A stretch of 64,000 bases of DNA, from positions 228 through 64,227 of IMG/VR virus record IMGVR_UViG_3300042322_000140, one strand, 5' to 3'. The notes below the pieces were generated by a model. The model was given only the letters and a program-made list of their open reading frames with translations, did no database searches and was not told the origin of the DNA. Position 1 is the first letter of the stretch; each line of letters starts with the position of its first letter. The position numbers were made by a program, and so were the translations under genes. The DNA is from a virus (taxonomy: Duplodnaviria > Heunggongvirae > Uroviricota > Caudoviricetes). Shown piece by piece: positions 3,709-25,326 of the stretch.

Positions 3709-3716
3709 TTTATTGT

Positions 3717-3756
3717 AAAAAAATACCCCCTTGGATTTTGTCCTTGGGGGTTTTTT
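3717..3756. terminator. Probable bidirectional intrinsic terminator between convergent gene blocks
   Basis: ACCCCC...GGGGGT stem with inner GGA/TCC pairs, A-run on the left and T-run on the right. Confidence 0.65.
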
Positions 3757-3762
3757 AATTTA

Positions 3763-6700
3763 TTATTCTTCTTCTGATATTTCTGCCCAGCCTCCTTCTT
3801 TTAGATCATTTTCATCTATAAGGATAGCTATTGGTATTAATGACTCATCTTTATTATAGTAGTCATATGTATCTCTCAAAGATTTAAGGTTACCGGCATT
3901 CCATAAATCAAATGTAGGTTTTGCTCCAGTAACGTTCTTCAAGAAGTATATTTGTTGTTTTGTCATACCTTTAAACCTACCTCTATCTTCTACTTCTGTG
4001 TCGAATGCTCTGGTGATGTTAAATAAGTTTTCTAATTTTTGTACTCCTACTAGAGGCTCTTTTACAGAACTATAAAATTCACCAATTACCCCAAACTGTG
4101 TTGAAGATGTTTCTGTGGTTACCCTTTCTAACATATAAGCCGCAAATTGTGCTGCCCACATATCTTCTTCATCATCTGCCCAGTGTCCAACTCCAATTGT
4201 TAATAAAAACAATACTGAAAGGAATGCAAAATCAACCATTACTCTCCTGATGTTTTCTCTTTGTACATCATCACCATTTAAGTACTGGCTTTTTAGTTCA
4301 CCTAATGCAGATTTCATACCTCCTTTTTGTAAACCGTTGTTAAAATTTTGTACAAAAAAGTTATAAACTGAGAAGTAAGTACCCTCTTCCATTTGACCGG
4401 TTTGTAGGTTTAAGTGTCTTCTCTTGAACCTATTTGCTGCAGATATAGCTAACCACCCTTTGTGTGTCATTGCAAATCTACCTAGTACGTCTCTTTGCAT
4501 AGAGGTTCTTTCCTCGTTGGTAATCATACCATCAATTCTTTCTACAACTTTCTTTAATTTAGTTATAACCCCAATCTCAATGTTTCTAAAATCTTTTTGA
4601 AACTGCTCATCGTTAGTTCTACCCATATCTCTAGCTAAACTATCATAGTCATAAGCTACTGTTCCGTCTTTTGGTGACATGTAGTTGTACAGGGTTTTAT
4701 CTCTAAGTAAGTCCCATTGATTTGCCAGGTCTTTTTTAGTAGCTGACGGATTTACTGTTTTATATAAGGATTCAAATTTTTTAGAATCTACTAATTTACC
4801 TTCATATATTCTAAATCCATATAACTGAGAAAGCATTGCTTTAGACAAAGGTGCAAAGTTACCTGCTGTGTGTAGTATATACTTTGATTTAGCTAATACT
4901 CTAGGCCCTTTTGAGTACATAGAGTTTTCAAATTTATTACTTAAATCAAATACACCAAAATATTCTCCATATATAGATAGCTTAGATTTTGAGTCTATTT
5001 CTAAACTTTCCTTCATTGCAGGAAAAGCTATCTTTCTAAACTCTTTTGAAGCTAAATTCATAGATCCAGAATCTACATACTGACCAACATATTTTTCTAT
5101 AATCATAGATGCCTCAGCTGTAAGCCATGAAGTAACTGGTACTACAACATTCAATGCAAGAGAGTTATCTCTAATAAGTTTATGCAACATATTTATTATC
5201 TTAGTTACATCAATTTGCCCTAGTACTGGTACAGTTACTCTCCAGTTTTTTCTTTCTTTTATACCAAATAAATTATGGTCGTAGTAAGATTGAAACATTT
5301 TGTAAGTGTTTGTAGATGTAGCATCTTTACCTTCTGGATAAGCTCTCTTTAAAACTAAATCATTAAGTGTAGCAAACTCAGAGAATCTTTCTTTTCTAGC
5401 TTTATATAACTGAGATTGTTGTGCAAATAACATAGAGCTATAGAATAAATCTGTAGATACGTCTGTTTCTTCTTCTAATTTTTTCAAAAAGTACTTCGGT
5501 ATAATTTTCATGTTTGTTGCTTTTACTAAAGCCTCTCCCTCTACTTCTTCACCAAATGCTTGCTCATCTACTCTAAATCTAACAGCATCTCTCCACCACT
5601 CTTTTATAGTCCCTCTTTTACCTTTTATTAAATCATTAGCTTTTTCTAGGCCGGTTTTTGAAACTTGTGGTGCTAAGTATAAGTTGTGTGTACCTAGTTC
5701 CCCATAAGATCTTAAACTTTCTCTTTGGAACTCCATGTATTCCTTGTACAAACTAAATAGTTTTTGATTAGTTGTAGCTTGAATATTGCCTTCATTATCT
5801 AATATAGGGTTATTGTCAGCGTCTAACACAGGTCTAAAAAGGTCTACGAAGTTTTTATTCAAGTACTTACTAAGTTTAGGTTGTTTAGAACCACCTTCAA
5901 AATCCTCTTTGTAATTTGGGTTCTTAAACTTAATTTCCCCCATTTCGTAGTAAGAAAAATTATTACTAACTTTTACATCTCTTCTTTTGTTTAGCTCTGT
6001 TACTAATGTATACACATTCTGATTTCCATTTTTTAATTGGTCGTAAAAGTTTTGTAAACCTACTGGGGCAAATGCTTTATAATAAGGTGCTAATTTTGTC
6101 TCTGCATATTTTAATTTTGCTGCTGGAATATCATCCTTATTTAATTCAGACAATTCGTTTATCCCCACAGTTCTTAGTATTAATGCTTTGTGTCCCTCTG
6201 ATACTCTTAACCCTTTTAATACATCATCTAAAGCGTCTGAAAATTGTCTTGCTTTCTTAGCATTTTCAACTGTCATATTTTCAAGAGCAAATTTGTATTT
6301 GCCTTCAGCAGTTGTTATTCTTGCGTCAGCTAACATATCGTAGTAAGACTGATTAGGCGTAGACTCAGAAACTCTATTCTCCTCTGTACCTAGACTAACT
6401 TTATCTTTAAATATAGTGTATAGCTCTACGGCCATTCTGTCTATTTCTTCAGATAATTCTATAACTTTACTTCTTTGTTGCGTTGACATTTCTTCAGCCA
6501 TCGTGTTAGTAAAGTTTCTAGAGTCTTGGTATTGTTTTAATATAGATTTTCTAGATTGTAGTTTGTCTTTATAAGATTTTATTTTCTCTATCCAAGCTTG
6601 CTCTGAATTTGGGTCTTGGCTATATGAATCTATATAAGTCATCATGCTTTCTGATACATCAAAGTTATTCCAGAAATCATTAGAAAAACCTACGCTTGAG

Positions 6701-9486
6701 TTTAATATAAAAAATTCAACTGCTGCTTCTCTACCTTCTTCTAATTCAATCTTTTGAAGCTCTTCTAGAAATTTAGGTGCAAGTTTTTCAATATCTATTT
6801 TTTGCCCACCAGAAAGTCTTGCCTCTTCTTGCTTCTCAGCTAAAAAAGCTTGGTCTAATTTATTTATTTCAAAAGCTATCTTAGCCTCCTCACTTACAAC
6901 TCCTTGAAGTTCATAGTATATTCCAGATACTTCTATAGAGTTTTCAGATGGGTTTTCAACTGGTTTTAGACCTGTTTTAATATCCCCAAAACTTTCGAAT
7001 AAAGATTTTAAACTTTTTCTTTTTAAGTTTATAGCATCTAATTCATACTTATCTTGAGATGTGTACCTTGGTAAACCTTTTTCATTTTTAACTCTAGACA
7101 TAAGACTACCTAAGTCTGTAGACAATAGTCTAAGCTCTGTTTTAGTAGTGTCACTTATTCCAAGTTTTTCATATTTATCATCTCTATTTTGATAATAATC
7201 TTCTGTAAAACTTCTCTCCACTCTTGAATTAACTGCATCATTAACTTCTTTTTCATAAGCTTTTTCTGCTGCCTCATCTGTTATTTTTGGTAAGTCGTAG
7301 CTTTTTATACCCTTTATTATATCTTCGTCAGACATTGCTGTACCGCTATGAATCTTATAAGCTTGTAACTTTATATCTGTAATGTCTTTTTCAAAAGCGT
7401 TAAAATCATATAAACTTGTTACATAACCTCCTTTTTCCATAAATTTAGGTAGGTCAGCTTCTGTAAAACCAAGTTTACGAATTGTATCTTGAAACTGTTT
7501 TGCTCTTACTAAATAGCTTTGTTCTGCATCTAGAGTCATATCTGCAATAACACTCCCTAAAATATTAAGTAGTGGATCATGTGCATGTGTGATTTGACCA
7601 AATGCTGAATAAAATAATTGTGTATCTCTAGTAGCAGTAGTAACTGCATCTCTTAGTTTTTGTCTAACTTCGTCATCAAAACTGTGTCTTATCATTAACC
7701 TGTCTATGATTCTGTCTAGTACATCATTTTGTACGTTATCTGCAGCCCCGGTTACAGCTGATACTTTTACAACAACTGCGTTAATATCATTTACAATATC
7801 TGCTAAATCTGCATCCTCTTTTGATAGGGCTACTAATCTAGATAATACTGGTACAATGTTATCTTTCAAGCCTTGTAATACAATACCCTCTTCATTAGAT
7901 AAAGTCTCACCTCTTCTTTTAGATGTTTCAATAGCTGTAGATACATAGTCTGCTTGTCTTTTTGCTAAAGATATTAAGTCAAGTATTGAGCTTTTTGTAA
8001 TAGCTTTATCTAATGCTGAGTTTAACATCTGTATACTAGCTGCAGATCCTCTACCGGCATTTCTAAGACTTCTTTCTTGGTCAAGTAATGATTTTACCAG
8101 TCTTTTTACAATAACATTCTTAGTATCAAGAACCACGTTTCCGCTTGCTTGTTGCTGATACATTCTAAAAGTCTTAGTTTTAGTTTTGTCTAAGTTTAAA
8201 TACTTATTTACATCTTTGGTTAATAGCAAGTCCTCTACTTTTACCGTTAGTGCCTCTAAGTCAGTATAGAATGTATCCTTTACAACTACAGAATTAAAAA
8301 ACTTACCTAAAAGCTCAAAAATTCTTTCTATTATTGTTTTGTGTATTTCTGTTTTACCCTCTGTATTAAATCTTTCTTGTATAGCTTTTGCCAGTTCTTT
8401 ACCTAATATCTCTCTTCTAACTAAGTTTTCAACTTGTTCAGTAGACATACTTGGGTTTTCTCTTGTGTACAATTCTCTATAAGATTGTGAAAATTCTACA
8501 TAAGAACTGGTTTTGTTTATATTTCTTAATAGGCCCTCTATCTCAGCATCATCCCAAGTTTCAACTATGAAGTGTGAAGTCTCTTCTGCTAATCCATCAA
8601 TAGTCATCAGACCATCTTTGAATGCAATTACTTGTCTAGATACATCTAATAATGCTTGAGCTGATGGATCAACACCATTTCTAATATTATAGCTATTTAT
8701 GTAGCTGTTTATAGATGTCACCTTGACACCCATACTGTTTAAAAGATCCAAAAGATTCATTTTTAAAGACTCTTCATTAGTGTTCAAAGACTCTGTTGAG
8801 ATACCTGATGGTAATGCATCTTTTACTGCATTGTTTATCATAAGCTCTACAGCTTCATCTTTACTAACAGACTTTTCTAACTCTCTTAGAGTAGTAGCCC
8901 TGAAGTCTTCTAAAGACATTGATTTATTACCTACTTGTACTTTATTCTTGTTGTTCAGTAATTCAATTCTACCGTCTTTGTAGATCTTAAAGTTCTTTCT
9001 GTTTAGGTTGGTTTTGGCTTCCTCCTTTATGATCTGTTCATTTACTATTTGTAATGGCCCATGGTTACCAGCTGCTTGGTGGTAAGTTTTTCCATTTTCT
9101 ATTATTTTTTGATCAGAAAGAATATCACTTTTGATCATGTTGTTTATAAACCCTTCATAGCTAGCCGGGTTTGTGTTTGAAGACACTGAAACTAGGTTTT
9201 TAAACGTGTTTTCAATACCCATACCTATCTGTATATCCCCTCCTGCTGAGTTCTGTAAAGCTTCTTTGTAAGAATTGAACGTCACACCTTTATCAGAAAT
9301 AAAAGTGATAGGGCTTTGGTCGTTTATTTTTTCTGAATAAACATTTTTAAAAATAGACAAAGCTTCTTCTAAACTTTCTACATGTGGAAGTCTAGCTATT
9401 TGTTTGAATAGTCTACTTTCTTTACCTTCTAGGTCAAAAACGTTTTTTATACTACCGTTTTTATTATAATTAATCGTACAGCTCAT
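3763..9486 (-). CDS. Giant virion ejection/cargo protein C (1907 aa), crAss-like
   Basis: Last of three giant ORFs; LAEETSHF zincin-like motif; GRFAMTHKGW...EEGTY C-terminal motif; hydrophobic helix near C-terminus; only Cys is at residue 3. Confidence 0.7.
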   Translation of the reverse strand: MSCTINYNKNGSIKNVFDLEGKESRLFKQIARLPHVESLEEALSIFKNVYSEKINDQSPITFISDKGVTFNSYKEALQNSAGGDIQIGMGIENTFKNLVSVSSNTNPASYEGFINNMIKSDILSDQKIIENGKTYHQAAGNHGPLQIVNEQIIKEEAKTNLNRKNFKIYKDGRIELLNNKNKVQVGNKSMSLEDFRATTLRELEKSVSKDEAVELMINNAVKDALPSGISTESLNTNEESLKMNLLDLLNSMGVKVTSINSYINSYNIRNGVDPSAQALLDVSRQVIAFKDGLMTIDGLAEETSHFIVETWDDAEIEGLLRNINKTSSYVEFSQSYRELYTRENPSMSTEQVENLVRREILGKELAKAIQERFNTEGKTEIHKTIIERIFELLGKFFNSVVVKDTFYTDLEALTVKVEDLLLTKDVNKYLNLDKTKTKTFRMYQQQASGNVVLDTKNVIVKRLVKSLLDQERSLRNAGRGSAASIQMLNSALDKAITKSSILDLISLAKRQADYVSTAIETSKRRGETLSNEEGIVLQGLKDNIVPVLSRLVALSKEDADLADIVNDINAVVVKVSAVTGAADNVQNDVLDRIIDRLMIRHSFDDEVRQKLRDAVTTATRDTQLFYSAFGQITHAHDPLLNILGSVIADMTLDAEQSYLVRAKQFQDTIRKLGFTEADLPKFMEKGGYVTSLYDFNAFEKDITDIKLQAYKIHSGTAMSDEDIIKGIKSYDLPKITDEAAEKAYEKEVNDAVNSRVERSFTEDYYQNRDDKYEKLGISDTTKTELRLLSTDLGSLMSRVKNEKGLPRYTSQDKYELDAINLKRKSLKSLFESFGDIKTGLKPVENPSENSIEVSGIYYELQGVVSEEAKIAFEINKLDQAFLAEKQEEARLSGGQKIDIEKLAPKFLEELQKIELEEGREAAVEFFILNSSVGFSNDFWNNFDVSESMMTYIDSYSQDPNSEQAWIEKIKSYKDKLQSRKSILKQYQDSRNFTNTMAEEMSTQQRSKVIELSEEIDRMAVELYTIFKDKVSLGTEENRVSESTPNQSYYDMLADARITTAEGKYKFALENMTVENAKKARQFSDALDDVLKGLRVSEGHKALILRTVGINELSELNKDDIPAAKLKYAETKLAPYYKAFAPVGLQNFYDQLKNGNQNVYTLVTELNKRRDVKVSNNFSYYEMGEIKFKNPNYKEDFEGGSKQPKLSKYLNKNFVDLFRPVLDADNNPILDNEGNIQATTNQKLFSLYKEYMEFQRESLRSYGELGTHNLYLAPQVSKTGLEKANDLIKGKRGTIKEWWRDAVRFRVDEQAFGEEVEGEALVKATNMKIIPKYFLKKLEEETDVSTDLFYSSMLFAQQSQLYKARKERFSEFATLNDLVLKRAYPEGKDATSTNTYKMFQSYYDHNLFGIKERKNWRVTVPVLGQIDVTKIINMLHKLIRDNSLALNVVVPVTSWLTAEASMIIEKYVGQYVDSGSMNLASKEFRKIAFPAMKESLEIDSKSKLSIYGEYFGVFDLSNKFENSMYSKGPRVLAKSKYILHTAGNFAPLSKAMLSQLYGFRIYEGKLVDSKKFESLYKTVNPSATKKDLANQWDLLRDKTLYNYMSPKDGTVAYDYDSLARDMGRTNDEQFQKDFRNIEIGVITKLKKVVERIDGMITNEERTSMQRDVLGRFAMTHKGWLAISAANRFKRRHLNLQTGQMEEGTYFSVYNFFVQNFNNGLQKGGMKSALGELKSQYLNGDDVQRENIRRVMVDFAFLSVLFLLTIGVGHWADDEEDMWAAQFAAYMLERVTTETSSTQFGVIGEFYSSVKEPLVGVQKLENLFNITRAFDTEVEDRGRFKGMTKQQIYFLKNVTGAKPTFDLWNAGNLKSLRDTYDYYNKDESLIPIAILIDENDLKEGGWAEISEEE

Positions 9487-9506
9487 ATTTTTTTATTATT
9501 ATAATG

Positions 9507-9538
9507 CAAAATTAGTATTTTTATTTGTCATATCCAAA
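9507..9538 (-). promoter_or_regulatory. Bacteroidota sigma70-type promoter for giant C
   Basis: Minus strand TTTG-N20-TAATTTTG, 20 nt upstream of ATG 9486. Confidence 0.75.
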
Positions 9539-9544
9539 TACATT

Positions 9545-9574
9545 AAAAAGTTAAGGCTACTTTTCAGCAGCCTT
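9545..9574 (-). terminator. Intrinsic terminator after giant B
   Basis: Minus-strand RNA AAGGCUGCU-GAAA-AGUAGCCUU followed by AACUUUUU. Confidence 0.7.
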
Positions 9575-9580
9575 TTCTTA

Positions 9581-12500
9581 TTATTGACAGTTGAAATATT
9601 CATCGTCTATCTGTTTTAATTCTTCTTTAGAATAGTAATTTTTTGATGTCTTAAACACCTCTGGGCTATTTTCCAGGTATTGGTACTTGTTAAAGTTTAC
9701 ATCTGACAAAGGTTTTTCTATACCAGTTAGTTTAAAGTTAGGGTCTACTGAAGGCAGTTTGTTGTAAAACTTAACGTTCCCTGCTTCGTATATCATTTCA
9801 AAAACCCCTTGTGTTGTTCTTACAAATGTATCTGTTTCATTCTTTACAGCTAATACCCCATCTTCTATGTATCTGTAATCTCCGGATATTTTCTTAGCAC
9901 TTTCAGGATTATTTGCAAAAAACTCTCTTTGGCTTGTTTGGCTGTCATAGTCTTCAAATACTAACTCTTCTGATGTCATTCCTAAATTCAAATTCTTAGA
10001 TATTGCATCGTAGTCTGCCAAGTCTTTTTCAAATTCTAATGGGATAGACATTATTGCTTCCTCTTTAGATAAAGGGTCTTTTTCTACTAATTCTATTCCT
10101 TTTCCTGTAACCTTGAAGTACTTATTGTTTGTCTCTAGTATAAATCTATTGAAGTCTTTTACAAACTCTGTAACCAAATACTCTGGGCTAGATATTACAC
10201 TACCTAAACTATCTGTTGATACTTTTATAGGAGTCACTACTAATGGGAAGCCAAAGAACTTTTTATACAAATATATCTTAGCCAGCTTATCAGGGTCTAC
10301 TTCGTAATCTGCTACTTCAAGATTTGTTACTTCTTTTTCTACAAAGCTTCTTAAGTCTTCAATATTAGCTACTTCATCTGGTAACATTTCAGGATACTCT
10401 AGCATTGTATCGTAAAGCTCCTCTAAGCTCTGCTCCTCTGTTTGTCTATAAATATCCCCTTGCTTTTTGACTAAACCAAAATTATCAAACATTTGATACT
10501 CCGACATATCTGATTCAACAACTGTATCAAATTCATTATCTGTTTCTATTACAGCTGATTCTTCTGTGCTTGTATCAAATAACTCTTTATAAATAGTAGA
10601 GTAGTTAATTATATTTTCCTCAGTTGGTCCTGTTTCTAGTAGATTTTCCATAGCGTCTAAAAACGCAAGTATATCTTCTCTACTATGAGATAACACTTTA
10701 GTAGGAATGTCTCTTAGGTCAATACCGTTTGTCATAGCTTTCTTTTTAATAGAGGCTAATAATTTTACTACTGCATTAGGGTTTTCGTCCCAAACTTCTT
10801 CAGAAAACTCTTCGTTTATATATCTAATTTCCTCAGATAATTTAGAATTTTCTTCGTCAATCAATGTATTAGCTACAATGTTTTCTATGTCTTCTGCCTT
10901 ATCAACTAACACCCCGTCTTTTGTAACCTTTATATTAACTAATTTATGATTCTTAGCTATATTATCTACTGAAGATTTAAAGTTAGAGTCTTTTGCATAT
11001 TTATTGCTAAGATCTGGTAACAAATTATCTGAGATCTCTTCTTCAGAAATACCAGCTATATCTCTAGCTAACTCTGCTTCAACTATAAATGGGTTTGCTA
11101 TTTCTTGTTTTCCAAATATGTTTAAGCTTGTTCCAGTAAGTGTTATAAAGTTTTTATTGTATTCTATCTCAAAAGGTTCTGTATTTTTTAATTTTAAATA
11201 AGCTTCTTTTATACTTCTTTGTAAGTCTAATGAGCTCATTATTTTTGTTGCCTCATACTTATTAAACACCCCACCTCTTTGTAAAGATACTAAATTAAAA
11301 GATATAATACCAGATTTTGTAATAGCACTTTCTAATTTTTCTAAAAGCTCCGATGAAGAGTTTACTCCAAGTGCCATAGCTGCATTTCTTGCAACAACTT
11401 GGTCCTCTAATGATAAAGACTCTGTAGAATTATTTTTAAATTGCATCAAATCTTTAATCGAAGGCTCTCCGTTTTCATCATAACCATTTGGTGCAAGCTT
11501 TCTCGCTGGTCTTTGCATTTCAAAATCAGATGTCTTTTTATACCCAAGTGATGTGTAGAACTTTTCAAGTCCGGCATTAGTAGTGTTTTTATCTCTACTA
11601 GAAATAGTCAATACTGTACTTTTACCTATTGAGTCTGTGTATTTTAAAGCTGTATTAAAAGCTTCTCTTGCTCTACCCTGGCCTCTAAATTCTTCTGGTG
11701 TTTCTACCAATTCCATTTCTATTTTGCCAGTAGGTTTTTCAGTAATTGGGTTTACTTCATTTCTAAAATAAACTTTACTTCCATTTACATCTGCAACCAT
11801 TCTTTCTCCAGCACTTTTTATGTTTAGTTCAGAGACCCAAGAAGGTAATAATCCTACTTTTTGTTCTGCAAAACTCATCATATCATATACTTGGTTAGTC
11901 AAGATTTTAGCTCCCTCTGTATCACCATTTCTTCTAAGTACTCTAGCTTTATCTCTTAATTCGAAAGCTTTGTCGTTTACTCCAGAGAAATTAACCCAAG
12001 AGTTTTGACCTCTAGTCTCAGTTGTCATGGCAAGTCTAGCTAATGGAGAGTACATTCTAGAGTGTATATTCCATGCGTTTTCTTCTCCTAATGCACCAAA
12101 ACCATTTCCAAATTTAGCATGCCCAAAGAAATCGTGTACAAATCTAAATATGTCATTTGCTAATAAAGGCTCCCCATTTACATCTTTAAACTTAGTCTTT
12201 TGTAAAAGTGGGTTGTCTTTTCTTTGTTGAGCTGTTATAGCCTCATCCCCAAATCCAGACTCCGTTGAGAAAATCTTCATACGCTTATTACCACGTAAGT
12301 CAGCTATCATGTCGGCAGAGTTTTCATACGGCTCCGAATTATTTATCTCTGGTTTGTAACCATAGCTTAGTATTTTTTTATACTGGTCTACAGTCTCTTT
12401 TACCATAGCTTTGTAAGCCGCTTTTGTTTTAGTATCGTTTGGTGTAGGTTGCATCTTATCAAACTCAGCTGCTATACTTTTGCTATTTTCTTTATTTAAT

Positions 12501-15500
12501 TCCTTTATCGGTTCTATTGCATCAATGCTTATACCTTTCTCTAACATGTATTCATCAGCTATTTTTGATGCGTCCTCTAAAGGTGCATTAAATAACTTAT
12601 TACCATCTACTATAGAAAAGTTTACATAGCTGTCAGAATCATTAAATCTCTTTTTGGCTTCTTGGCTTTTCTCATATACTTCTCTAAAGTCTCCAAAATA
12701 CATATTTTTGACTCTTGCATAAGCACGTATGATATTCATACCACCAAAAGTTCCGGCATCTAAATGCACAGGTTTTCCGTCTTTTATGCCCCAATTAGCA
12801 ATATCTCCTAAATCACCATAGATTATGTCGTAGTTTAAATACTCTTCTAATCCATAGTTTTTAAGTACTTCAACCAAGTCTGGGTTTTTAGTATCAAAGT
12901 CTGCTTGACTATATCTGTATAGTTCCATAAGCATTACCTCTGCATCTTCTGTACCATATTGTTCACCATTCACTATGTTGTATATAGGAATTTGATCATT
13001 TGGTTCAAGTTGAGTTAACTTTTCAGCTATAACATAATTAAGGCCAGTTTCATAAACTTGTGGAAGGACACCTTTACTTATAAGCTCTTCATTACCTTCT
13101 TGCATGTTTTGAGCTAGTCCTCTGGCATTATTTGCTACTTTTAGCACCTTACCCTCACCTAAATCAAAAACAACTCTGTCAGAGCCTTGAGATAACTTTA
13201 CTAAGTTTGGTATATCAAATCTATCTCTTGCTACTTGGTTTACGTCATATTTATACCTAAGATAAGTACTATCTATACCTAGATTTTTTTGCATTCTGGA
13301 TCCAGATAATAATTCAGTGGCAGATGCTGATCCAAACTCTGCTAGTGTCATTGCTGATACTTGTTCAGCTGTGTAGTTTGATAACCCAACTGCTGCTTTT
13401 ATAGCACCCCAAACACTTTTTAACCACTCGCTTAAGCTTCCTTTTTTATTGCTTAACAATAATTTAGCCCCTTGATCACCTATTACTTGTGCAAGGACTT
13501 CATTATTAAACTCTTCTGAACCTTCTTCTAGATCTGGTTGTGTGTTTTTTACAATATCTATGTATTGTTGAGCTTCTTCTTTATTTTTTTCAACAAGAGA
13601 TAGTCCAGATTTATATATGTCTTCTCTGTTTTCTTTTAGCCAATCTAGATGTAAATGTCCAAATTCATGTATTGGTGTATCTAACCCCATTACATCGTTG
13701 TTCAAGTACACATCTCCTCTATAAGTAAAACCTGCAGTACTTAGTTTTATACCTTTTTCTAATAACTGTTTGCTAAATTTAATATCTTTGTTTATAGGCT
13801 CAACTAAAGTTTTATCTTTTATTGCAAATACAATTTGTCCTTTGTTACCTATATCTTCTCCTTTTATAATTTTTGCATTTTCTACTTCTTTTATAAAAGC
13901 GTCAAGTTCTTCTTTAGGTAATTCTATTCCTTCTGCTAGTAAAGAGTATCTAATTCTAGTTTTCCACTCTTTTAAATCAGATAGATTGTCTTGGTGAACT
14001 GTTAATAAACCTTGGCCAAAACCTACTTTTTCTACTCCCCATCTTTTATTCCAATTATCTAGGTCTAAAATATCTGGGCTTTTGATTTTAAATTCTTCTA
14101 TATTTCTACCAAAAACTCCGGCATATTTTTTTTGTACAGCAAAGTATTGTGTACCTTTATAGTTTGAATCAAACTCTCCATTTATGCCTCTGTATACTGC
14201 AGGTAAAGATTCTATTTTATATTCTCTTATTAAAGCTGCTGCTTCTTCTTTTACTTCTTGTTCTGTTGAGTTTTCTGATAAGTATACCTCTAAATATGAA
14301 CCATCCACTAAATTAACTTCCCAGAAGTCTTCTTCTGTGTTAAAAAATAAAGAGTCTACATCTTCTTGTGACATAGTTACTTGCTTAGCTATTTTTGAAT
14401 CTAAACCAAGGTTTACTAACTTAGCCTCTATCTGAGAGTTAGTCATTTGGAATACATTATTAGCTAACCCACTTAGTTCTAGCTTAGATATAATCTCTTG
14501 TGTTATCTCATTCTTAGAAGTCTCACTCAAGCTTTTAGAAAACATAGGTATAGACGACTTTAACTCAGAACGCATCTTATTTGTTATCTCAATATAAGGC
14601 TGTTCTGCTAAAGTCAGTTTGTCTGCGTTTATTTCTTGTGGTACATATTTTTCAAAATACTTTCTAGCTCCCCCTGCTGTGTTATCTAAGTCTGAATTAG
14701 ATAGTGTTTCTTCATCAACATACTCTACAAATTCTCCATTAACTCTTAAAACAAATCCATCCTCTTCTTCTGTAATTTCTACATTAGATTTTTCTGCAAA
14801 GTTAACTGTTTCTAATTTAGCATCTTTGTCAAATCTTTGAGCTTCTTTTTGTGCTACTTTTGTTACAATATTGTCATAGAAAGATTTCATACCTTCTCCA
14901 CCTACTTCTAGGTCTAAGCCTGAGTACTCTTTACCTTGACCAGTTGACTTTAAGTCTCTTATTTCATCTAAGTCATTTACTACTTTTTTTGCAAACTCTT
15001 TCCCAAAAAAAGATTCTAATTCTGCATCATCTCTTACACCTTTTGCACTTAAAATTTTACCGTCTTTTTTTACCTCGGCATTATATTTAAACAAACTACT
15101 TCCAGCATAGCTTATCTCTATAGCATCTACTTGATTAGATAAACTATACATACTAGAAGATTGCTGTCCTGTAGCAAAAGCTACACCACTGTACCCCTCT
15201 TGTGCTGCCATTTGTAAAACACGTCTTGTAGCTAAGCCAACCCATTGATCAGTATTTTTATAAGGCATTTCTTGTAAGCCAGACTGATCAATATCAATAA
15301 TATCTCTTTTTGCAGCAGCTATTTGTCTTTCTAAAGGTGTTACTTTTGAGTAGTAGTCTTGTATTACTCTAAAACCTTCTTGTTCAACACTTGGTAGATC
15401 TTCTACCCCAATAGTATTTTCAAGACTTTTTCTAAAATCTAATTCGTTTGCTCTTCTTTCTATAGTTGTATCAGCAACCTCTTTAGAGCCATAGTAGTTA

Positions 15501-16990
15501 TTTTGTCCTGATACTTGTCCATCAACATATATTCTATAATCTCCATTGTTCTCTTTTACTGCTTCTACTCCTGTAGAATCACCTAACTTTTTACCAAAAG
15601 AGTTTACAGATTTAGCTATAGTTACATTTCCATACTCATCAATATTTGTAGTATAGCCTTTACCATCATTATAAATAACTCTCTGATAAGCATCCTTATC
15701 TATTTTTTTCTCTTCTTTAATCTTTAAAAGCTCCTCTGTTAAAGCTTTATATTTAGCTAATGCTATATCATTTTTAATTTGTAATTTTCTATCAGTAAAA
15801 CCTATCTTACGACCAGCTTGTGCCCAATCAGATTGTATCTCATTTACTACCAAAACTTTATCACCATTTGGTAAACCTTTCTCGTTTAACCTTATGTGAG
15901 CCAAAATATTACCTTCATCCCAATGAGATGATTTATACTCTTCCTTAATATAAGGTGTTAAGTTATTTCCGATAGCTACTTTATCTCCAAAAATCTGGTT
16001 TATTTTTTCTATTTCTGTTCTTATTCTTGCATGTTCTTCTCTTTGTTCCTGGGTTGGTGCCTGCCCAAAGGGTATACTTAGTATAAGTTTTTTTTCAGAT
16101 ATTTTTATTGATTTATATTGCTCAATTGCAGAATTTAATTTAGTGTCTGGCATCGTCAATAATATCTCTCTATAGTTTTCTCCCCCCTTTAGTTGATAAC
16201 CTTGGTATTTTACATCTCCATCTTCTCTGTCTAATACTTCTTCAATTGCTGCTTTTTTTGCATTTTCTTGTGCACTATAATAATCAAAGTTTTCATCAAA
16301 AGTATCTTCATCTGTTAAACCTATTTGGTCTAGTGTTATATAAGGCATAATTAAATTACCTTGGCCGGAGTACTTTATGTTAAACCCATTACCGTCAAAC
16401 TCTGCGTCTAAGTCATTAATGTCTATTTCAGGCTTACCCTTACTAACATCAACAATGCTAATTTGATTTGATTTAATATAATCTTCTACAACAGAAGCTG
16501 GTATGTTACCTGCTCTAGTATTGTTTTCTGCTACATAGCTGTTTAAATAATCTGCAAGTCCTATCCACTCAAGTTCTTGATTTACATTTTTTACTCCACC
16601 ATTCTTTTGTGTGTCTGTAAGCTGTTTTAACCAACCTTGTGTGTTTTTGGGATTTAAGTCAGTCAAATTGTTGATAGCAGACAAAGCATTTGAAAAGTAA
16701 GTACTATCTGGAGCTATTCTACTAAACTTTACAGCGTCTAGATTTGTTGCTAAATCTTTTTCAGATTTAACTAAATTGTTTACTCTATTTTTTATAGATG
16801 TAACTTTTGCTTTCACCATATCCTTGAAGTCTTCAACTTCAGTCAAGGCATAAAGATTTAAGGCGGTCTTTTTATTACCGCCTGTTATATTCACTAATGT
16901 ATCAAATAATTTACTTCTACTGCCATTTGCAGCTTCCACAAAATCAATATCCCCATTCTCGTCTTTATAAATTCTACATTTTAAGCTCAT
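9581..16990 (-). CDS. Giant polyvalent virion protein B (2469 aa): EIQSD-type domain, ART-like, zincin, kinase-like, HDFFGH domain, GNAT
   Basis: Motifs ELEWIGL/GGENYREILL/EIQSDW, VYRG..YFA..YA, TPIHEFGH..NEVLA, KVLKV..YGDLGDIANWG..HLDAG, FVHDFFGH..GEENAW..ETRGQNSWVN, EFRGQG..LEKFYTSLGY. Confidence 0.75.
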   Translation of the reverse strand: MSLKCRIYKDENGDIDFVEAANGSRSKLFDTLVNITGGNKKTALNLYALTEVEDFKDMVKAKVTSIKNRVNNLVKSEKDLATNLDAVKFSRIAPDSTYFSNALSAINNLTDLNPKNTQGWLKQLTDTQKNGGVKNVNQELEWIGLADYLNSYVAENNTRAGNIPASVVEDYIKSNQISIVDVSKGKPEIDINDLDAEFDGNGFNIKYSGQGNLIMPYITLDQIGLTDEDTFDENFDYYSAQENAKKAAIEEVLDREDGDVKYQGYQLKGGENYREILLTMPDTKLNSAIEQYKSIKISEKKLILSIPFGQAPTQEQREEHARIRTEIEKINQIFGDKVAIGNNLTPYIKEEYKSSHWDEGNILAHIRLNEKGLPNGDKVLVVNEIQSDWAQAGRKIGFTDRKLQIKNDIALAKYKALTEELLKIKEEKKIDKDAYQRVIYNDGKGYTTNIDEYGNVTIAKSVNSFGKKLGDSTGVEAVKENNGDYRIYVDGQVSGQNNYYGSKEVADTTIERRANELDFRKSLENTIGVEDLPSVEQEGFRVIQDYYSKVTPLERQIAAAKRDIIDIDQSGLQEMPYKNTDQWVGLATRRVLQMAAQEGYSGVAFATGQQSSSMYSLSNQVDAIEISYAGSSLFKYNAEVKKDGKILSAKGVRDDAELESFFGKEFAKKVVNDLDEIRDLKSTGQGKEYSGLDLEVGGEGMKSFYDNIVTKVAQKEAQRFDKDAKLETVNFAEKSNVEITEEEDGFVLRVNGEFVEYVDEETLSNSDLDNTAGGARKYFEKYVPQEINADKLTLAEQPYIEITNKMRSELKSSIPMFSKSLSETSKNEITQEIISKLELSGLANNVFQMTNSQIEAKLVNLGLDSKIAKQVTMSQEDVDSLFFNTEEDFWEVNLVDGSYLEVYLSENSTEQEVKEEAAALIREYKIESLPAVYRGINGEFDSNYKGTQYFAVQKKYAGVFGRNIEEFKIKSPDILDLDNWNKRWGVEKVGFGQGLLTVHQDNLSDLKEWKTRIRYSLLAEGIELPKEELDAFIKEVENAKIIKGEDIGNKGQIVFAIKDKTLVEPINKDIKFSKQLLEKGIKLSTAGFTYRGDVYLNNDVMGLDTPIHEFGHLHLDWLKENREDIYKSGLSLVEKNKEEAQQYIDIVKNTQPDLEEGSEEFNNEVLAQVIGDQGAKLLLSNKKGSLSEWLKSVWGAIKAAVGLSNYTAEQVSAMTLAEFGSASATELLSGSRMQKNLGIDSTYLRYKYDVNQVARDRFDIPNLVKLSQGSDRVVFDLGEGKVLKVANNARGLAQNMQEGNEELISKGVLPQVYETGLNYVIAEKLTQLEPNDQIPIYNIVNGEQYGTEDAEVMLMELYRYSQADFDTKNPDLVEVLKNYGLEEYLNYDIIYGDLGDIANWGIKDGKPVHLDAGTFGGMNIIRAYARVKNMYFGDFREVYEKSQEAKKRFNDSDSYVNFSIVDGNKLFNAPLEDASKIADEYMLEKGISIDAIEPIKELNKENSKSIAAEFDKMQPTPNDTKTKAAYKAMVKETVDQYKKILSYGYKPEINNSEPYENSADMIADLRGNKRMKIFSTESGFGDEAITAQQRKDNPLLQKTKFKDVNGEPLLANDIFRFVHDFFGHAKFGNGFGALGEENAWNIHSRMYSPLARLAMTTETRGQNSWVNFSGVNDKAFELRDKARVLRRNGDTEGAKILTNQVYDMMSFAEQKVGLLPSWVSELNIKSAGERMVADVNGSKVYFRNEVNPITEKPTGKIEMELVETPEEFRGQGRAREAFNTALKYTDSIGKSTVLTISSRDKNTTNAGLEKFYTSLGYKKTSDFEMQRPARKLAPNGYDENGEPSIKDLMQFKNNSTESLSLEDQVVARNAAMALGVNSSSELLEKLESAITKSGIISFNLVSLQRGGVFNKYEATKIMSSLDLQRSIKEAYLKLKNTEPFEIEYNKNFITLTGTSLNIFGKQEIANPFIVEAELARDIAGISEEEISDNLLPDLSNKYAKDSNFKSSVDNIAKNHKLVNIKVTKDGVLVDKAEDIENIVANTLIDEENSKLSEEIRYINEEFSEEVWDENPNAVVKLLASIKKKAMTNGIDLRDIPTKVLSHSREDILAFLDAMENLLETGPTEENIINYSTIYKELFDTSTEESAVIETDNEFDTVVESDMSEYQMFDNFGLVKKQGDIYRQTEEQSLEELYDTMLEYPEMLPDEVANIEDLRSFVEKEVTNLEVADYEVDPDKLAKIYLYKKFFGFPLVVTPIKVSTDSLGSVISSPEYLVTEFVKDFNRFILETNNKYFKVTGKGIELVEKDPLSKEEAIMSIPLEFEKDLADYDAISKNLNLGMTSEELVFEDYDSQTSQREFFANNPESAKKISGDYRYIEDGVLAVKNETDTFVRTTQGVFEMIYEAGNVKFYNKLPSVDPNFKLTGIEKPLSDVNFNKYQYLENSPEVFKTSKNYYSKEELKQIDDEYFNCQ

Positions 16991-17010
16991 TTTTCTTAGT
17001 TTATTTTATG

Positions 17011-17042
17011 CAAAATTAGTACTTTTTTTTGTAAAAACCAAA
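17011..17042 (-). promoter_or_regulatory. Bacteroidota sigma70-type promoter for giant B
   Basis: Minus strand TTTG-N20-TAATTTTG, 20 nt upstream of ATG 16990. Confidence 0.75.
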
Positions 17043-17059
17043 TTTGTTAACTATTTTTA

Positions 17060-20000
17060 TTAACAAGGTTCATTTTTAGCATCATCAACATCAGATTGTT
17101 GATCTGTATTTAGTCTAAAATACTCATCTATTAAGGATTGTACTAAAGGGTGATCTGATAAATCAGACTCTTGTGTTGTAAGAGCTTCATCAAGTAACAT
17201 CATCTTATTAAAGATCTCTGTTGCTTTTTCTAAGCTTAGGTTTCCAGTAGCTATAGCATCTGAGTACCAATCCCTTTTTATTTCTACCATTTTGTCTAAG
17301 TTTATGATTGGCTTAGGTGAAGATAGTGGATTGTTTTCTATGTCTATCGCTAAAGAAGCTTCTGATACTAAATTCTCTTTTGTGTGTTCTGTTGACATCC
17401 ATGTAGATACATCTACTGTTTGTTTTACTTTATTTAGGTCACTTATTGCTCTTAGTAACGGTTCAGAAAAATTCCCATTCATGTCAACTAAAGTCTGTGC
17501 GTCTTCTCCAACATGGTATAAATTATAAGAGGCTGGAGATAGTCCATTTACTGCTAAAGTTTGATTGAACTCTAAAACTGCAGATCCTAAATTTTCAGTC
17601 TCCATTAACTTTTGTACTGCTGTGTCCCCTGCATTTGATGCCAACTCTTTTAATTGTATTGGGAAAGCTACTAAGTATTTACCTTGATTAAATATAATTA
17701 CTGGTAACCCAGTTTTGTTAAGGTGATTACTTATGTAATCTTTTCTTACATTTTTAGTGTTACCTTTAAGTACTAATTTTCCATCTTGTATATAACCGTA
17801 GTCAACAACAGCTTTTGGAGAAATATCAAAATACTTTATAGTACCACCTTCCATATTAAAGTTTGGTACACCTAAAAAGACATGTTTAATAAAACTTTCT
17901 TTTGGTAATTGTATGTCTATATCTGCTTCAGTTCCTAATCCTTTCTCTTTTACTATTTTTAAAGCCTCTTCTCTAATAAGTAAGAACTCTGAGCTTTGGC
18001 TAGTATTGTAGTTAGCTTTTAGATCACCAAATTTTCTACCTCTAACATCTGATACGTTAATCTTAAGTTGGTCTGATAATAATTTTTCTATCTTTAGAAC
18101 TTCCGGAGACATTTTACCATCTTGGTCTATCATTACATCTCTGTCTTCAAGATCTTGTATAGCCTCTTGGTATTCTAGAATTATCTTTTGATTATACTCA
18201 TCGGTCAAATCTAGACTAAAGGTTACAGTGTCTCCAGGTACCATGTTGTAAAGCTCCATAGGTGAATAATCACTAGAGTCTTTAAAGTCTGTCTCCATTA
18301 TCTCCCCCGTTTCATTGCTATAAACTGGCGAATACCCTGAATCTTTAGTAAAAGAGTTTTCCATGTAACCCATGTTAGCCTCTCTTAATACTTGCTCAAC
18401 CTCTGATCCTTTTTTTATAGTTAGGCTTCCACCTTTATCTATAATTATAGTAGCTGTATTACCGTCTCTGAATGTTAAGACAAATGTAGCACCGTACTTA
18501 ACATTTTCAGCAACTTCTTGTATTGATATGTCTTTTGCTGTGTTTGGTACAGTTACTGTTTTATTATTAACAACTTCTGTTTGTACAAAAGCTACTGTAT
18601 CTGCTAAATCCACTCTTGACAATAAGCCAGGAAGTGTCAAATGAGATATTGTAGTTCCAAATTTATTTCTGTTTATAAATACATTTTGGTAAACTTGTAA
18701 TACTTCTTCATTTCTAATAGCTTCCCCTGAATCGGTTTCTTTTGGCTCTTTCTTGGATATATTTACAATCTCTGTTTCAGTAAGTTCACTATTTATCTTA
18801 GGGTCTACAAACTGATTTACTATAATATCTTGTAATAACATATCACTTATAGATATACCAGTATCATTAGCTACATTTTCTAGTAACCTCCAATTAGCTA
18901 ATCTTTCGTTAAGCTCTTGTAATCTTTTTATCTCTGCTTTTTTCAAAGAAGGTCTTGTAGTTGGTGTTAGCCTATTCCAAGTATAAGGGCTTTTAAAAGA
19001 TATTGTTTTATTGTCAATCTTAGGGTCTGCTAAAGCTCTTATTGCTAAGTCTTCGTACTCATCTAACTCTTCCTCTGTCATCATAACAGGTACATCTGTA
19101 CCATAATAGTCTAAAAGGTATGGACTGTTTTTGATCATGTCTACAACAGTTTCTTTTATAGTCTTCTTTCGAACTTCTTTTTTGGTTGTCTGACCATTTT
19201 TAGGTGCATATTTCTTTTCAATAGCGTCTAACTTAGCTTTTCTTTCTTTTTCAAGGCTTTCTGTACTATTAGAACTATTTCCACCAACAAGATTCATCCT
19301 ACCGTTTGAGAAAGTAGCTAAATTAAATGATGGTGGTATTCTTATACCTGCATCATTTGGGCTAACTGCCATTATATGTTCCATCACAATATCTCCAAAA
19401 TACTTATTTATATTAAGATTTTGAGTATTTATACTATTTGGGAAACCCATTATTACTAACTTGGTAGCTCCTCTATGATTTATTTTACCGTCTATTAAAG
19501 CCTCTATTGAATTATATAAACCCTCTTTTGTAGTATTTACATTTGTGGTCCCTTCTGCCGAAGGTCCTGTATTAAGACCTGTTTTAAGTATCCCTTCTAG
19601 TGTTACTTCAGATGTTGTAAGATGTGATAAAAAGAAGAAGTCGTCTGGTAAACTTTCGATTCTATCTTTTAATTCTTTCTTGAGATTATCTTTTTCTTCT
19701 TTTGATAACTTGTTAAAGTCTTCTATATTTTGTATAGATGTACTTGGGGTATCAGAGTTTGATATTTTAGAATCATACTCATCATTTACTTTTTGTATTT
19801 CTGCTTGTTTTTTAGCTTCTTTTTCTTCTATTGTAGGCTTATTTATTTTAGCACCTTTTTCGTTATCAATAACTTCTTTTACTGGTTCTAAATTCTCTAA
19901 CCCTTGTACTATTGTATCTTCTGCTCTTTCTATAGAGCTTTCTGATAGCCCTCTTAAAAATTCTACAGTTATGTCGGTAGAGTTCTTGCCTCTTCCTAGT

Positions 20001-22639
20001 TCTGATACAATGTTTCTTCTTCCTCTAGCTCCTAATGTTGTATCAGAAAGTTGTCTAGATAAGTCTGCGTATCTTTTAAAGGCAGTTATTGACTTACCGT
20101 ACTCGCTTATTAATTTTTGTAATTGGGCCCCTTTTTGTGGGTCTACTTCACTAAATGATGCGGCTAGTTCTCTTACTTGTTTTAAAGTTCTTTCTCTATT
20201 TCTTATACTTTGTGCACTAATCAAAACATCATCAACATTCTTACCAAATGGGTTTTTCATGTTGGCTGTTTTTATCAGCATTGTATATTCTTTTGTTAAG
20301 GACTCTATGTTTTTATCTATCTCAGATATTCTAGATCTTATACCATCAGCTTTTGATAAAAATTCTTTTTTGGCATCTGTATCCACTGTTCCAAAAAGTG
20401 TCTTCTCTACTTCTTTATATTCTCTTTCTAGAGTTTCTTTTTCTCTATCTAGAACTTTTAATTCTTTCTCTTTCTTTGTAGCTTCTTTTTTAGTATCCTT
20501 ACTGGCTTTTAAAAGAATATCTTCTATGTTAAGAGTGTCAGACATCTCTTGACCTAAAATAGTCTCTCCAGTCTTCTGTTTTATAGCTGTTAATAAGTCG
20601 TTAGAAAAGTCATGTACTTTTTCTCCAAGAGTTAATTCATAAGCAACAGCATCTTTTACTTGGCTCATATTAAGACCTAAGTCTTTGAACTCTTCTTTTT
20701 CATTTTTTGTAAAATCTTTACCTAATATATACTCGGTATAATTTCTATTTTTCTCGTAAGATTTAGCTGTAGATTTATACTCCTTTACTAACTTTTCTTT
20801 TATATCTTCTGCCCCTTTTTCATCAACTCCGTACTCTTTCATAAGAACATCATTACCAATATTTCTAATACCAGTTTCTGTTCTTTCCATACTTTCATCT
20901 AGATAATCTAGGTTAAGTGCATGCGAGGCTTGAGCGATAATTGCTGATTGTCTAGCTAATTCCCCTCCTGTAAAATCTCCTTTTTTTGCAGCTTTGTCTG
21001 CACTTTGGTTAGCAGCTTGTACTCTACCAGAGTAGGCTAATGTTTCAGCCATGTTGTTAGGTGAATAGTACTTATCATAAAAGTCTACTACTTGGTTTGC
21101 TTTTATTTCTTCCCCTTTTAATTCACCTTTTAAACTACCATAAGTTTTCATATTAATACCAGTACCTGTAAGTAAACCTACAATCATACCGATACCAACT
21201 TCTTTCATCCCCTCTTTGGTACCATAAGTGTCAGATAACCCTTGTGTAAAAGCATCTCCAACATCCATAGTTGTACCTAAATACTTAGGGTCATATGTAG
21301 AGTTTATCCAATTTTTAGCAGTATTTGTTCCAACAGATTGCATACCTTCTTCCCATACTCCTTCTATAAGTGGACTTTTACCAATACCCCAAGAGTATTT
21401 GGCTACATTTTGTAATTTGCTAGCTGTTTTTGCTACCATTTTACCTGCTGACTCTTCTACCCCTATTCCAAAAAGCTTAGAATTAGCCCATTTAGATGAG
21501 GCTGAAAGTGGGCTTTTCATATCAAAAAGTCTACCTATAGTCATAAAATTACTTGAGCCTACAATTGCTAAGTTGAATCCGTACAAAGAGTTAGCAGAAG
21601 ATGTTAAATTATTGTTGAAATCTTGTAACTCTTCTTCACTAGGCTTTCTTCCGTTTTTTGTTTCAAAACTTTCTTCAAAGTTATCCTTCATTTCTCGTAT
21701 ATAATTACGAGCTTCCATACCTGCTTCAAATCCTGCAGATGTATATGTAAACCTAGCTACGTTAGCAAACTCTCCTGCTTTACCAAAAGCCGTTGCCATT
21801 TTTGTAGGTAATTTTGCATTTAGGTAAGTTTTTAATATTGGCTGTGATGCTAAAGCTTTAGCTTTAGACATTTCCCCATATGCTTTTAATCCTTTAGCTA
21901 TTTTTGCCTCTGCTCCTAAAATTCTAGTAACTTTTGGAGCTAATCTAGCAGCAGCTGTCCCTAAAGACATACCTCCTGTGGCCCAAGCCCATATAGCCTC
22001 TGAACCTATCGCTGATACTGTAAAAGCAGCACCACCTAATACGTCCTTGGCCCAAAAATTTGCTGTACCCATTGACTCAAAAAACCCCATATCTCTCTCT
22101 TCTTGAGAAACATAGTTTGGTAATTTGTAGTCTAATTTTTCATTTAAGTCATCTAAGTAGTTTGAAAAATCATTATCATAAGTTGCTCTAAAGCTTCCTT
22201 CTTTTATACCTTCATAAATACCGTCTACTACTCCTATTGTACCTCCTACTATTCCTGTACCTACTTGTCCAGCAAATTTAGTTATACCATTTAACCATTT
22301 CTCACTTGTACTTTGATTAGCTGCTGCATATTCTGCATTATCTCTTCCTGCTTTATATGTTGGAAATCTTGCTATGTAGCTTCCATCTCCTAATTTACCA
22401 TAAGCTTCCTCTACGTTATAGTTCTTTTCTTCCAGAGAACCTCTATAATCAGAACGCATACCAGTGTTACCCCAAAGACCGTTGTCTGGGGTAAACCATT
22501 CTGGATTTTGCGTAAACTTTTTGCCAGTAGTATAAGAGGTTCTTATACTGTCCATTACTTGATTAATTTGAGGATCTTGGCTTTTTCCTAAAGAGGATTC
22601 AACTGCTTGTCTCCCTAATTCTGCTGGGTTAAAATCCAT
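17060..22639 (-). CDS. Giant virion ejection protein A (1859 aa), probably membrane-inserting
   Basis: N-terminal Gly/Ala-rich hydrophobic segments, long coiled coils; only Cys is the C-terminal residue; first of three giant genes. Confidence 0.65.
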   Translation of the reverse strand: MDFNPAELGRQAVESSLGKSQDPQINQVMDSIRTSYTTGKKFTQNPEWFTPDNGLWGNTGMRSDYRGSLEEKNYNVEEAYGKLGDGSYIARFPTYKAGRDNAEYAAANQSTSEKWLNGITKFAGQVGTGIVGGTIGVVDGIYEGIKEGSFRATYDNDFSNYLDDLNEKLDYKLPNYVSQEERDMGFFESMGTANFWAKDVLGGAAFTVSAIGSEAIWAWATGGMSLGTAAARLAPKVTRILGAEAKIAKGLKAYGEMSKAKALASQPILKTYLNAKLPTKMATAFGKAGEFANVARFTYTSAGFEAGMEARNYIREMKDNFEESFETKNGRKPSEEELQDFNNNLTSSANSLYGFNLAIVGSSNFMTIGRLFDMKSPLSASSKWANSKLFGIGVEESAGKMVAKTASKLQNVAKYSWGIGKSPLIEGVWEEGMQSVGTNTAKNWINSTYDPKYLGTTMDVGDAFTQGLSDTYGTKEGMKEVGIGMIVGLLTGTGINMKTYGSLKGELKGEEIKANQVVDFYDKYYSPNNMAETLAYSGRVQAANQSADKAAKKGDFTGGELARQSAIIAQASHALNLDYLDESMERTETGIRNIGNDVLMKEYGVDEKGAEDIKEKLVKEYKSTAKSYEKNRNYTEYILGKDFTKNEKEEFKDLGLNMSQVKDAVAYELTLGEKVHDFSNDLLTAIKQKTGETILGQEMSDTLNIEDILLKASKDTKKEATKKEKELKVLDREKETLEREYKEVEKTLFGTVDTDAKKEFLSKADGIRSRISEIDKNIESLTKEYTMLIKTANMKNPFGKNVDDVLISAQSIRNRERTLKQVRELAASFSEVDPQKGAQLQKLISEYGKSITAFKRYADLSRQLSDTTLGARGRRNIVSELGRGKNSTDITVEFLRGLSESSIERAEDTIVQGLENLEPVKEVIDNEKGAKINKPTIEEKEAKKQAEIQKVNDEYDSKISNSDTPSTSIQNIEDFNKLSKEEKDNLKKELKDRIESLPDDFFFLSHLTTSEVTLEGILKTGLNTGPSAEGTTNVNTTKEGLYNSIEALIDGKINHRGATKLVIMGFPNSINTQNLNINKYFGDIVMEHIMAVSPNDAGIRIPPSFNLATFSNGRMNLVGGNSSNSTESLEKERKAKLDAIEKKYAPKNGQTTKKEVRKKTIKETVVDMIKNSPYLLDYYGTDVPVMMTEEELDEYEDLAIRALADPKIDNKTISFKSPYTWNRLTPTTRPSLKKAEIKRLQELNERLANWRLLENVANDTGISISDMLLQDIIVNQFVDPKINSELTETEIVNISKKEPKETDSGEAIRNEEVLQVYQNVFINRNKFGTTISHLTLPGLLSRVDLADTVAFVQTEVVNNKTVTVPNTAKDISIQEVAENVKYGATFVLTFRDGNTATIIIDKGGSLTIKKGSEVEQVLREANMGYMENSFTKDSGYSPVYSNETGEIMETDFKDSSDYSPMELYNMVPGDTVTFSLDLTDEYNQKIILEYQEAIQDLEDRDVMIDQDGKMSPEVLKIEKLLSDQLKINVSDVRGRKFGDLKANYNTSQSSEFLLIREEALKIVKEKGLGTEADIDIQLPKESFIKHVFLGVPNFNMEGGTIKYFDISPKAVVDYGYIQDGKLVLKGNTKNVRKDYISNHLNKTGLPVIIFNQGKYLVAFPIQLKELASNAGDTAVQKLMETENLGSAVLEFNQTLAVNGLSPASYNLYHVGEDAQTLVDMNGNFSEPLLRAISDLNKVKQTVDVSTWMSTEHTKENLVSEASLAIDIENNPLSSPKPIINLDKMVEIKRDWYSDAIATGNLSLEKATEIFNKMMLLDEALTTQESDLSDHPLVQSLIDEYFRLNTDQQSDVDDAKNEPC

Positions 22640-25265: not shown

Positions 25266-25285
25266 CTTTATCTTTATAATTTATG

Positions 25286-25317: not shown

Positions 25318-25326
25318 TTAATTAAA

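Follow-up and report, generated by a model that had tools for sequence, protein, structure and literature searches.

How, and in what order, a megadalton cargo passes through a podovirus tail only nanometres wide is an open question for the most abundant human gut phages. The locus analysed here lies in a 64,000-nucleotide (nt) window taken from bases 228–64,227 of the 128,227-bp virus record IMGVR_UViG_3300042322_000140 (Caudoviricetes; record completeness estimated at 90%). Three giant genes of the window, here termed A, B and C (Table 1), encode together 6235 amino acids (aa), and a first-pass annotation had proposed that their products carry cysteine (Cys) only at the ends facing the neighbouring product. 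Translation by script confirmed all four Cys at the codons given in Table 1, with none at the free outer ends, and the check for interior Cys, run on A, B and C, found the interiors empty. The upstream 874-aa protein is Cys-free, again as proposed. We lean towards the reading, drawn from sequence comparison, that a disulfide at each junction ties these cargo proteins head to tail.

Open reading frames (ORFs) of at least 150 aa outside the cargo block of the 128,227-bp genome were used as background for Cys content. At the resulting frequency of 1.04%, about 65 Cys would be expected in 6235 aa, against the 4 observed (0.06%), and, by the simple arithmetic (20/6235)^4, random placement would put all 4 Cys inside the 5 residues at each of the four facing ends with a chance of about 1e-10. 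The pattern is not a matter of chance, since it is conserved in relatives.

Conservation of the terminal Cys in homologous trios was checked in the phage's own clade and was found to hold. In the A family, with identity down to 23%, 110 of the 112 cluster representatives have a Cys in the last 8 residues, which is the sole Cys in 109 of them, and the interiors hold 1 Cys per 208,008 residues; one exceptional homologue is broken in two as if by a frameshift, the 269-aa tail piece retaining the Cys at its end. Members of the C family have a Cys at residue 2–5 in 82 of 83 homologues (the sole Cys in 75; 9 interior Cys per 166,818 residues), the sole exception being a gene interrupted by an assembly gap, with MSCNIN present upstream. 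The B family retains a Cys within the last three residues in 67 of 68 homologues and a Cys at residue 3–5 in 53; in 8 further homologues the N-terminal Cys is found at residue 13, the gene call beginning eight codons upstream of the usual MSLKC start, and 6 matches are truncated gene calls. Among the same 112 A and 83 C homologues, no Cys was found within 8 residues of the N-end of A or of the C-end of C. All seven complete trios retrieved from IMG/VR read 1/2/1 for Cys in A, B and C, with B of 665–2584 aa, and two truncated loci are consistent with this. A rare breach of the Cys-free interior was seen in the B homologues P0220 and P0221, which have 7–10 interior Cys (those listed lie at about residues 460–1320), retain the terminal Cys and also carry RadC and other Pfam domains.

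The pattern had been taken as a feature of one trio only, and this restriction did not stand, as the rule spans the whole crAss-like assemblage and is kept at 22–30% identity and beyond. In the Cellulophaga phage phi17:2 (genus Lightbulbvirus, 29% identity), Cys is found only as the last residue in gp039, only at residue 3 in gp036, and at residues 4 and 516 in the 517-aa gp038. The 2208-aa A homologue of csAssE-Sib has its last residue as the only Cys, the 752-aa B homologue has Cys 5 and 751 plus two interior ones, and a 281-aa ORF overlapping the start of the C homologue has a Cys at residue 5. As for true Crassvirales, in phi14:2 the Cys is the last residue only in g067 and is found at residue 3 in g065, while g066, the virion polymerase of solved structure (PDB 6VR4), has Cys at residues 3 and 2179. 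In Kehishuvirus (the crAss001 genus), Cys is located at residue 2309 of 2310 in the gp47-like protein, at 5, 1334 and 2404 in the gp50-like protein and at 5 in the gp49-like protein, the gp47 gene lying on the opposite strand from the other two giants with the Cys pattern unchanged. DAC15 and IAS virus retain the terminal Cys, with some interior Cys added; in a small sample, interior Cys number none in seawater and cyanobacterial phages and 1 to about 16 in gut phages. The cargo block of cr109_1 (Suoliviridae; locus 61–20,708) has in-frame stops under translation table 11, up to 70 in one gene, and with the stops read through the terminal Cys rule still holds. Recoding of TAG to Gln is known in some crAss-like phages and fits these stops.

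Gene fusions, confirmed by BLAST, show what becomes of the Cys where a junction is abolished, the fused junction being without Cys in the two cleanest cases. In the A+B fusion of cr1_1 (4551 aa), the first 4025 residues are Cys-free, one Cys is found at residue 4548 and the next protein begins MSIIC; in the cyanophage Lbo-JY46, the A homologue ends in its sole Cys and the following 2748-aa protein, with a C-like C-terminal part, has Cys4 only. In crAss002, cr11_1 and p-crAssphage it is B and C that are fused: A has a penultimate Cys, the fusion begins MSC (in crAss002 on condition that translation truly starts at Met33) and its far end is without Cys, these fusions being less clean for a few scattered interior Cys. 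A two-protein form of the rule is found in p-crAssphage and in Lbo-JY46. B itself ranges from 517 to 2807 aa across relatives, a five-fold span, with both terminal Cys kept throughout, and in one contig lacking B, about 340 nt separate an A with a Cys close to its C-end from the C that comes next, which starts MSC.

The neighbouring genes overlap by up to 17 nt at some junctions and lie up to 349 nt apart at others, and the Cys codons are both TGT and TGC, thus indicating that selection acts on the Cys residue. A nucleotide-level signal, such as a promoter or terminator, was considered as the cause of the pattern and rejected, the residue staying constant with layouts from overlap to 349 nt and even with genes on opposite strands. 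Short, unrelated ORFs of 119 and 82 aa, which have Cys in their interiors, were detected inside giant–giant junctions (phi17:2 locus 19,652–20,011; L021 6810–7058), and the rule therefore does not need gene adjacency.

The N-terminal ends of B and C share a module of about 55 residues (profile comparison by hhalign: probability 97.7%, expect value (E) 2e-12, Cys aligned), in which the Cys is the sole invariant column of an alignment of 34 rows. Within the phage's own genome, the module is confined to the N-termini of B and C, and no significant internal copy was found inside fusion proteins with its hidden Markov model (HMM). Among 1.84 billion proteins, the module profile retrieved 848 cluster representatives, the match nearly always beginning at residue 1–4; a Cys in the first six residues was present in 137 of 142 new top matches, and in 2 more after start correction, 3 being unrelated. 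An AlphaFold2 model of residues 1–200 of C, with a mean predicted local distance difference test score of 86, places Cys3 immediately before the first strand (residues 4–7). The best structural match of this model among 48,161 solved chains, 6vr4_B residues 2–95 (Z 5.6, root-mean-square deviation 2.9 Å, 69 residues aligned), is weak by the tool's own standard and, as far as models go, points to the equivalent end of the equivalent protein; a Foldseek search of the same model against the PDB returned nothing at E ≤ 0.001. Co-folding of the C-terminal 200 aa of B with the N-terminal 200 aa of C, each given as an alignment, scored 0.00 and is informative in neither direction.

Table 1. Features of the cargo region, in positions of the window.
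Feature	Position	Strand	Description
Giant A	17,060–22,639	−	1859 aa; PHROG 32390; BLASTP vs phi17:2 gp039 E 1e-97, vs Kehishuvirus (crAss001 genus) gp47 E 7e-12
Giant B	9581–16,990	−	2469 aa; variable middle link; residues 1956–2468 match phi17:2 gp038, BLASTP E 8e-26
Giant C	3763–9486	−	1907 aa; PHROG 37651 (virion structural protein); homologue of phi17:2 gp036
Cys1859 of A (TGT)	17,063–17,065	−	Final residue; sole Cys of A
Cys5 of B	16,976–16,978	−	B homologues keep Cys at residue 3–5
Cys2468 of B	9587–9589	−	Penultimate residue of B
Cys3 of C	9478–9480	−	Sole Cys of C
N-terminal junction module of B, residues 5–60	16,811–16,978	−	Starts at Cys; module HMM E 7e-20
N-terminal junction module of C, residues 3–58	9313–9480	−	Homologous to B module; module HMM E 6e-26
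HEFGH (zincin-type HExxH) motif in B, residues 1108–1112	13,655–13,669	−	Found by regular expression
Three Cys-free ORFs upstream of A (874, 702, 950 aa)	22,641–30,268	−	874- and 702-aa ORFs match PHROGs annotated as virion structural proteins
Promoter-like motif TACTAATTTTGCAT (14 nt) upstream of B	17,008–17,021	−	Exact copy
Promoter-like motif TACTAATTTTGCAT upstream of C	9504–9517	−	Exact copy
Two-mismatch copy of TACTAATTTTGCAT upstream of 874-aa gene	25,283–25,296	−	Motif scan

As to what these proteins are, the gene order matches that of phi17:2 gp043–gp036 and of phi14:2 g070–g065, with three consecutive giants downstream of tail/muzzle and small cargo genes. By BLASTP and tblastn, A is homologous to gp47/g067, the member that opens the crAss-like cargo block, and C to gp49/g065, the member that closes it, the homology to gp49 of the crAss001 genus (E 4e-19) and to phi14:2 g065 (E 4e-6) covering the C-terminal part of C. 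By these comparisons, A, B and C hold the place of crAss001 gp47/gp50/gp49 and of phi14:2 g067/g066/g065, and they are most likely giants packed in the virion and injected by the phage; in phi17:2 and phi14:2, tandem mass spectrometry underlies the annotation of the homologues as virion proteins. Among named relatives, phi17:2 and phi4:1 come closest; both belong to the genus Lightbulbvirus in Caudoviricetes, with no order assigned, and identity to Crassvirales proteins is 20–24%, over parts only, which falls short of membership in that order. A megablast of the region against the phage collection and searches of Pfam and of PDB sequences with A, B and C retrieved no match.

B was also considered as the crAss virion RNA polymerase and rejected. 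No similarity to the polymerase gp66/gp50 was found, with an hhalign probability below 1% for the B profile, and no match to phi14:2 gp66 exists anywhere in the 128,227-bp genome. The DFDxD motif, present in phi14:2 g066 and Kehishuvirus gp50, is absent from A, B, C and the whole 128,227-bp genome. Even with phi17:2 gp038, B shares only its last ≈500 aa. The HEFGH region of B gives a weak hhalign match (probability 54%, E 1e-4) to the part of the Lbo-JY46 fusion protein around its HExxH, and relatives of B and C carry LPD23, ART-PolyVal, Kinase-PolyVal, RadC and CCA-adding enzyme (PolyA_pol) plus HD domains.

Under the disulfide reading, inter-chain bonds would join the C-end of A with the N-end of B and the C-end of B with the N-end of C, forming after the particle leaves the reducing cytoplasm, and the N-terminal module common to B and C may grip the incoming tail. 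With both links made, the three proteins would amount to an unbranched chain some 6,200 residues long that runs N to C throughout. Such a chain could pass along the tail as one polypeptide does, its parts in a set order, and come apart when its thiols are reduced in the cytoplasm of the host. Each junction would retain one Cys pair to tie the chains head to tail, and interior Cys would be forbidden because stray cross-links would jam the exit. An interior kept free of Cys is known from proteins that have to pass out of a capsid in unfolded form by way of a narrow tail. Indeed, an end-to-end link is the sole type of cross-link that leaves a threadable, unbranched polymer, which fits Cys lying no more than 5 residues from the N-end and no more than 8 from the C-end, and the constant C-end-to-N-end polarity fits directional threading. 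Of the pairing proposed in the first-pass annotation, the part by which facing ends meet is supported by the restriction of Cys to junctions and its absence from the free outer ends, by the Cys-free fused junctions of the cleanest fusions and by the persistence of the pattern with B reduced to 517 aa or absent, whereas the type of bond, the threading and the release are parts that we infer. Disulfides are known in the tails of crAss001 virions, which also package gp47, gp49 and gp50 as cargo whose exit requires partial unfolding (PMC10172136); in some phages, the cargo trio is one polyprotein (bioRxiv 10.1101/2020.03.07.982082).

Several points weigh against such a tie. Virions are assembled under the reducing conditions of the cytoplasm, and the gut crassviruses have an anoxic habitat. 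The cargo giants of gut phages have several interior Cys, and one distant A homologue (2914 aa) is without any Cys, as is the next ORF. The argument for the bond itself would be a comparative one throughout, and the specificity of pairing would be left without explanation, the C-terminal tails of A and B showing no shared motif or relation by hhalign. Recombinant phi14:2 gp66 is active alone in dithiothreitol (bioRxiv 10.1101/2020.03.07.982082), and catalysis therefore does not require the link. Finally, lone terminal Cys without an evident partner were found on proteins upstream of A, namely Cys856 of p-crAssphage gp47 (857 aa; Carjivirus communis locus 2858–5431) and Cys5 of Lbo-JY46 XAI97385 (674 aa; locus 2626–4650), and terminal Cys can therefore have other partners.

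Such orphan Cys on other proteins of the cargo region, together with the disulfide cross-links among crAss001 tail proteins (PMC10172136), speak for the alternative that the terminal Cys of the giants bond something other than the neighbour, be it a portal, tail or inner-capsid protein, a second copy of the same protein, or a component of the host envelope during ejection. We regard this as rather unlikely, for it leaves unexplained the constant combination of one C-end and one N-end per junction, the Cys-free outer ends in 112 A and 83 C homologues and the exactly one pair that is left after loss of B. The facing ends could otherwise meet not through a disulfide but through a bridge of zinc, iron or copper, the two thiolates and further ligands holding the ion. 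Such a bridge predicts the identical junction pattern, would be workable both in anoxic guts and in the cytoplasm during assembly, and the tails are rich in Asp and Glu; two thiolates alone, however, make a poor zinc site, and with a single Cys at each end, no His, Cys, Asp or Glu position conserved next to it (the 34-row module alignment has no other invariant column) and His below 1% in A, B and C, we consider it quite improbable.

It is very improbable, in our judgement, that the Cys is a reactive group for another chemistry, such as self-cleavage, lipid attachment or a thioester-based ligation that makes one true polypeptide of the chains. In favour of this explanation count the use of terminal Cys by inteins and in ligation chemistry and the zincin-type motifs present in the block, but the N-terminal Cys stands at residue 2–5 and not at residue 1, no signature of an intein, a sortase or a lipobox was found in A, B and C, nor any Pfam match, and the two cleanest fusions have no Cys at the fused point. 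As for a Cys devoid of function, left where selection against Cys is relaxed at disordered chain ends, or where the ends are trimmed off, the low confidence with which the last 20 residues of B are modelled would agree with it. The Cys is nevertheless near-invariant amid changing surroundings, sole in this among the module columns and kept at 22–30% identity, it is absent from the equally free outer ends, and in C it borders a confidently folded domain; by such conservation, this explanation appears close to refuted and hardly credible.

Compared with the cargo blocks of crAss001 (gp47/gp50/gp49) and phi14:2 (g067/g066/g065, gp66 being PDB 6VR4), the locus has in common the genome place after tail and cargo genes, the homology of A and C and the terminal Cys rule, and differs in that its middle protein is not the polymerase and its nearest named relatives lie outside Crassvirales. 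In two-chain translocated toxins (diphtheria toxin, clostridial neurotoxins, ricin), a single disulfide holds the cargo to its partner through a narrow pore and cytosolic reduction frees it. The likeness to these toxins is one of analogy only, the proteins being unrelated and the toxin chains coming from one cleaved precursor, whereas here up to three chains are separately encoded. Ejection proteins of N4-like phages (N4 gp50, DEV gp71–gp73) have a Cys frequency of 0.00075%, for which the passage of these Cys-free giants through the oxidising periplasm has been put forward as the reason (PMC11445570). That near-total absence of Cys is comparable with the A-family interior (1 in 208,008), but the N4-like proteins are reported without Cys even at their ends and no sequence relation to them was found. 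Polyvalent proteins (Iyer et al. 2017, PMC5512222) are likewise giant multidomain proteins delivered with DNA, and the effector domains in relatives of B and C and the HExxH of B recall them, while the A, B and C of the window have no Pfam match and only the HExxH motif. In the polyvalent model, which does not mention cysteine, one polypeptide is cut up after delivery (PMC5512222), whereas here separate polypeptides appear to be joined. A full-text search of the literature on these proteins found no description of terminal Cys or of an end-to-end tie. What is new here is that the rule reaches beyond Crassvirales into a clade without a recognisable virion RNA polymerase, that the middle link is freely variable and dispensable, and that the acceptor end is a definable, searchable module.

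Evenly balanced, in our estimate, is the wider proposition that in crAss-like phages and their wider kin, p-crAssphage included, the terminal Cys pair replaces a peptide bond, giving a thread of 6,000–8,000 residues that is injected in fixed order, disassembles on reduction and has a swappable middle. If so, the joint would be a small standard plug, made of a tail Cys and an N-terminal module, and the middle protein would be freely swappable because of it: Crassvirales would have the virion RNA polymerase as the middle wagon, the present clade an effector array that varies from 517 to 2807 aa, and some genomes no middle wagon at all. The tie would also account for fused as opposed to split cargo genes and for the exchangeable middle protein. 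With a conserved tie between the chain ends, the passage of the cargo would have a simple physical solution, one thread with one polarity. Hundreds of relatives keep the rule, the commonest human gut phage among them. A Cys-free giant with Cys only at junction ends, together with the N-terminal module, would be a signature by which ejected cargo chains can be recognised in metagenomes.

A virus-encoded sulfhydryl oxidase was searched for, and no Erv-type match was found in the genome. An 86-aa thioredoxin/glutaredoxin-like ORF is located outside the window (genome 87,070–87,306, plus strand), of a type common in phages and hence uninformative; in p-crAssphage, a thioredoxin is annotated near the cargo block. 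The 874-, 702- and 950-aa ORFs upstream of A are not part of the A–B–C chain, and their positional counterparts in phi17:2, gp040–gp042, are likewise Cys-free. Two further minus-strand ORFs, of 2230 aa (49,531–56,223) and 553 aa (56,247–57,908), whose ends match tail-fibre PHROGs, are fully Cys-free, and Cys avoidance in this phage therefore extends beyond the cargo block.

Exact copies of the motif TACTAATTTTGCAT, which contains the Bacteroidota-type TAnnTTTG, occur only upstream of B and C, about 20 nt before the start codons, and 13 matches were found at up to 2 mismatches versus 2.3 expected. TACTAATTTTGCAT is probably the promoter of this class of genes.

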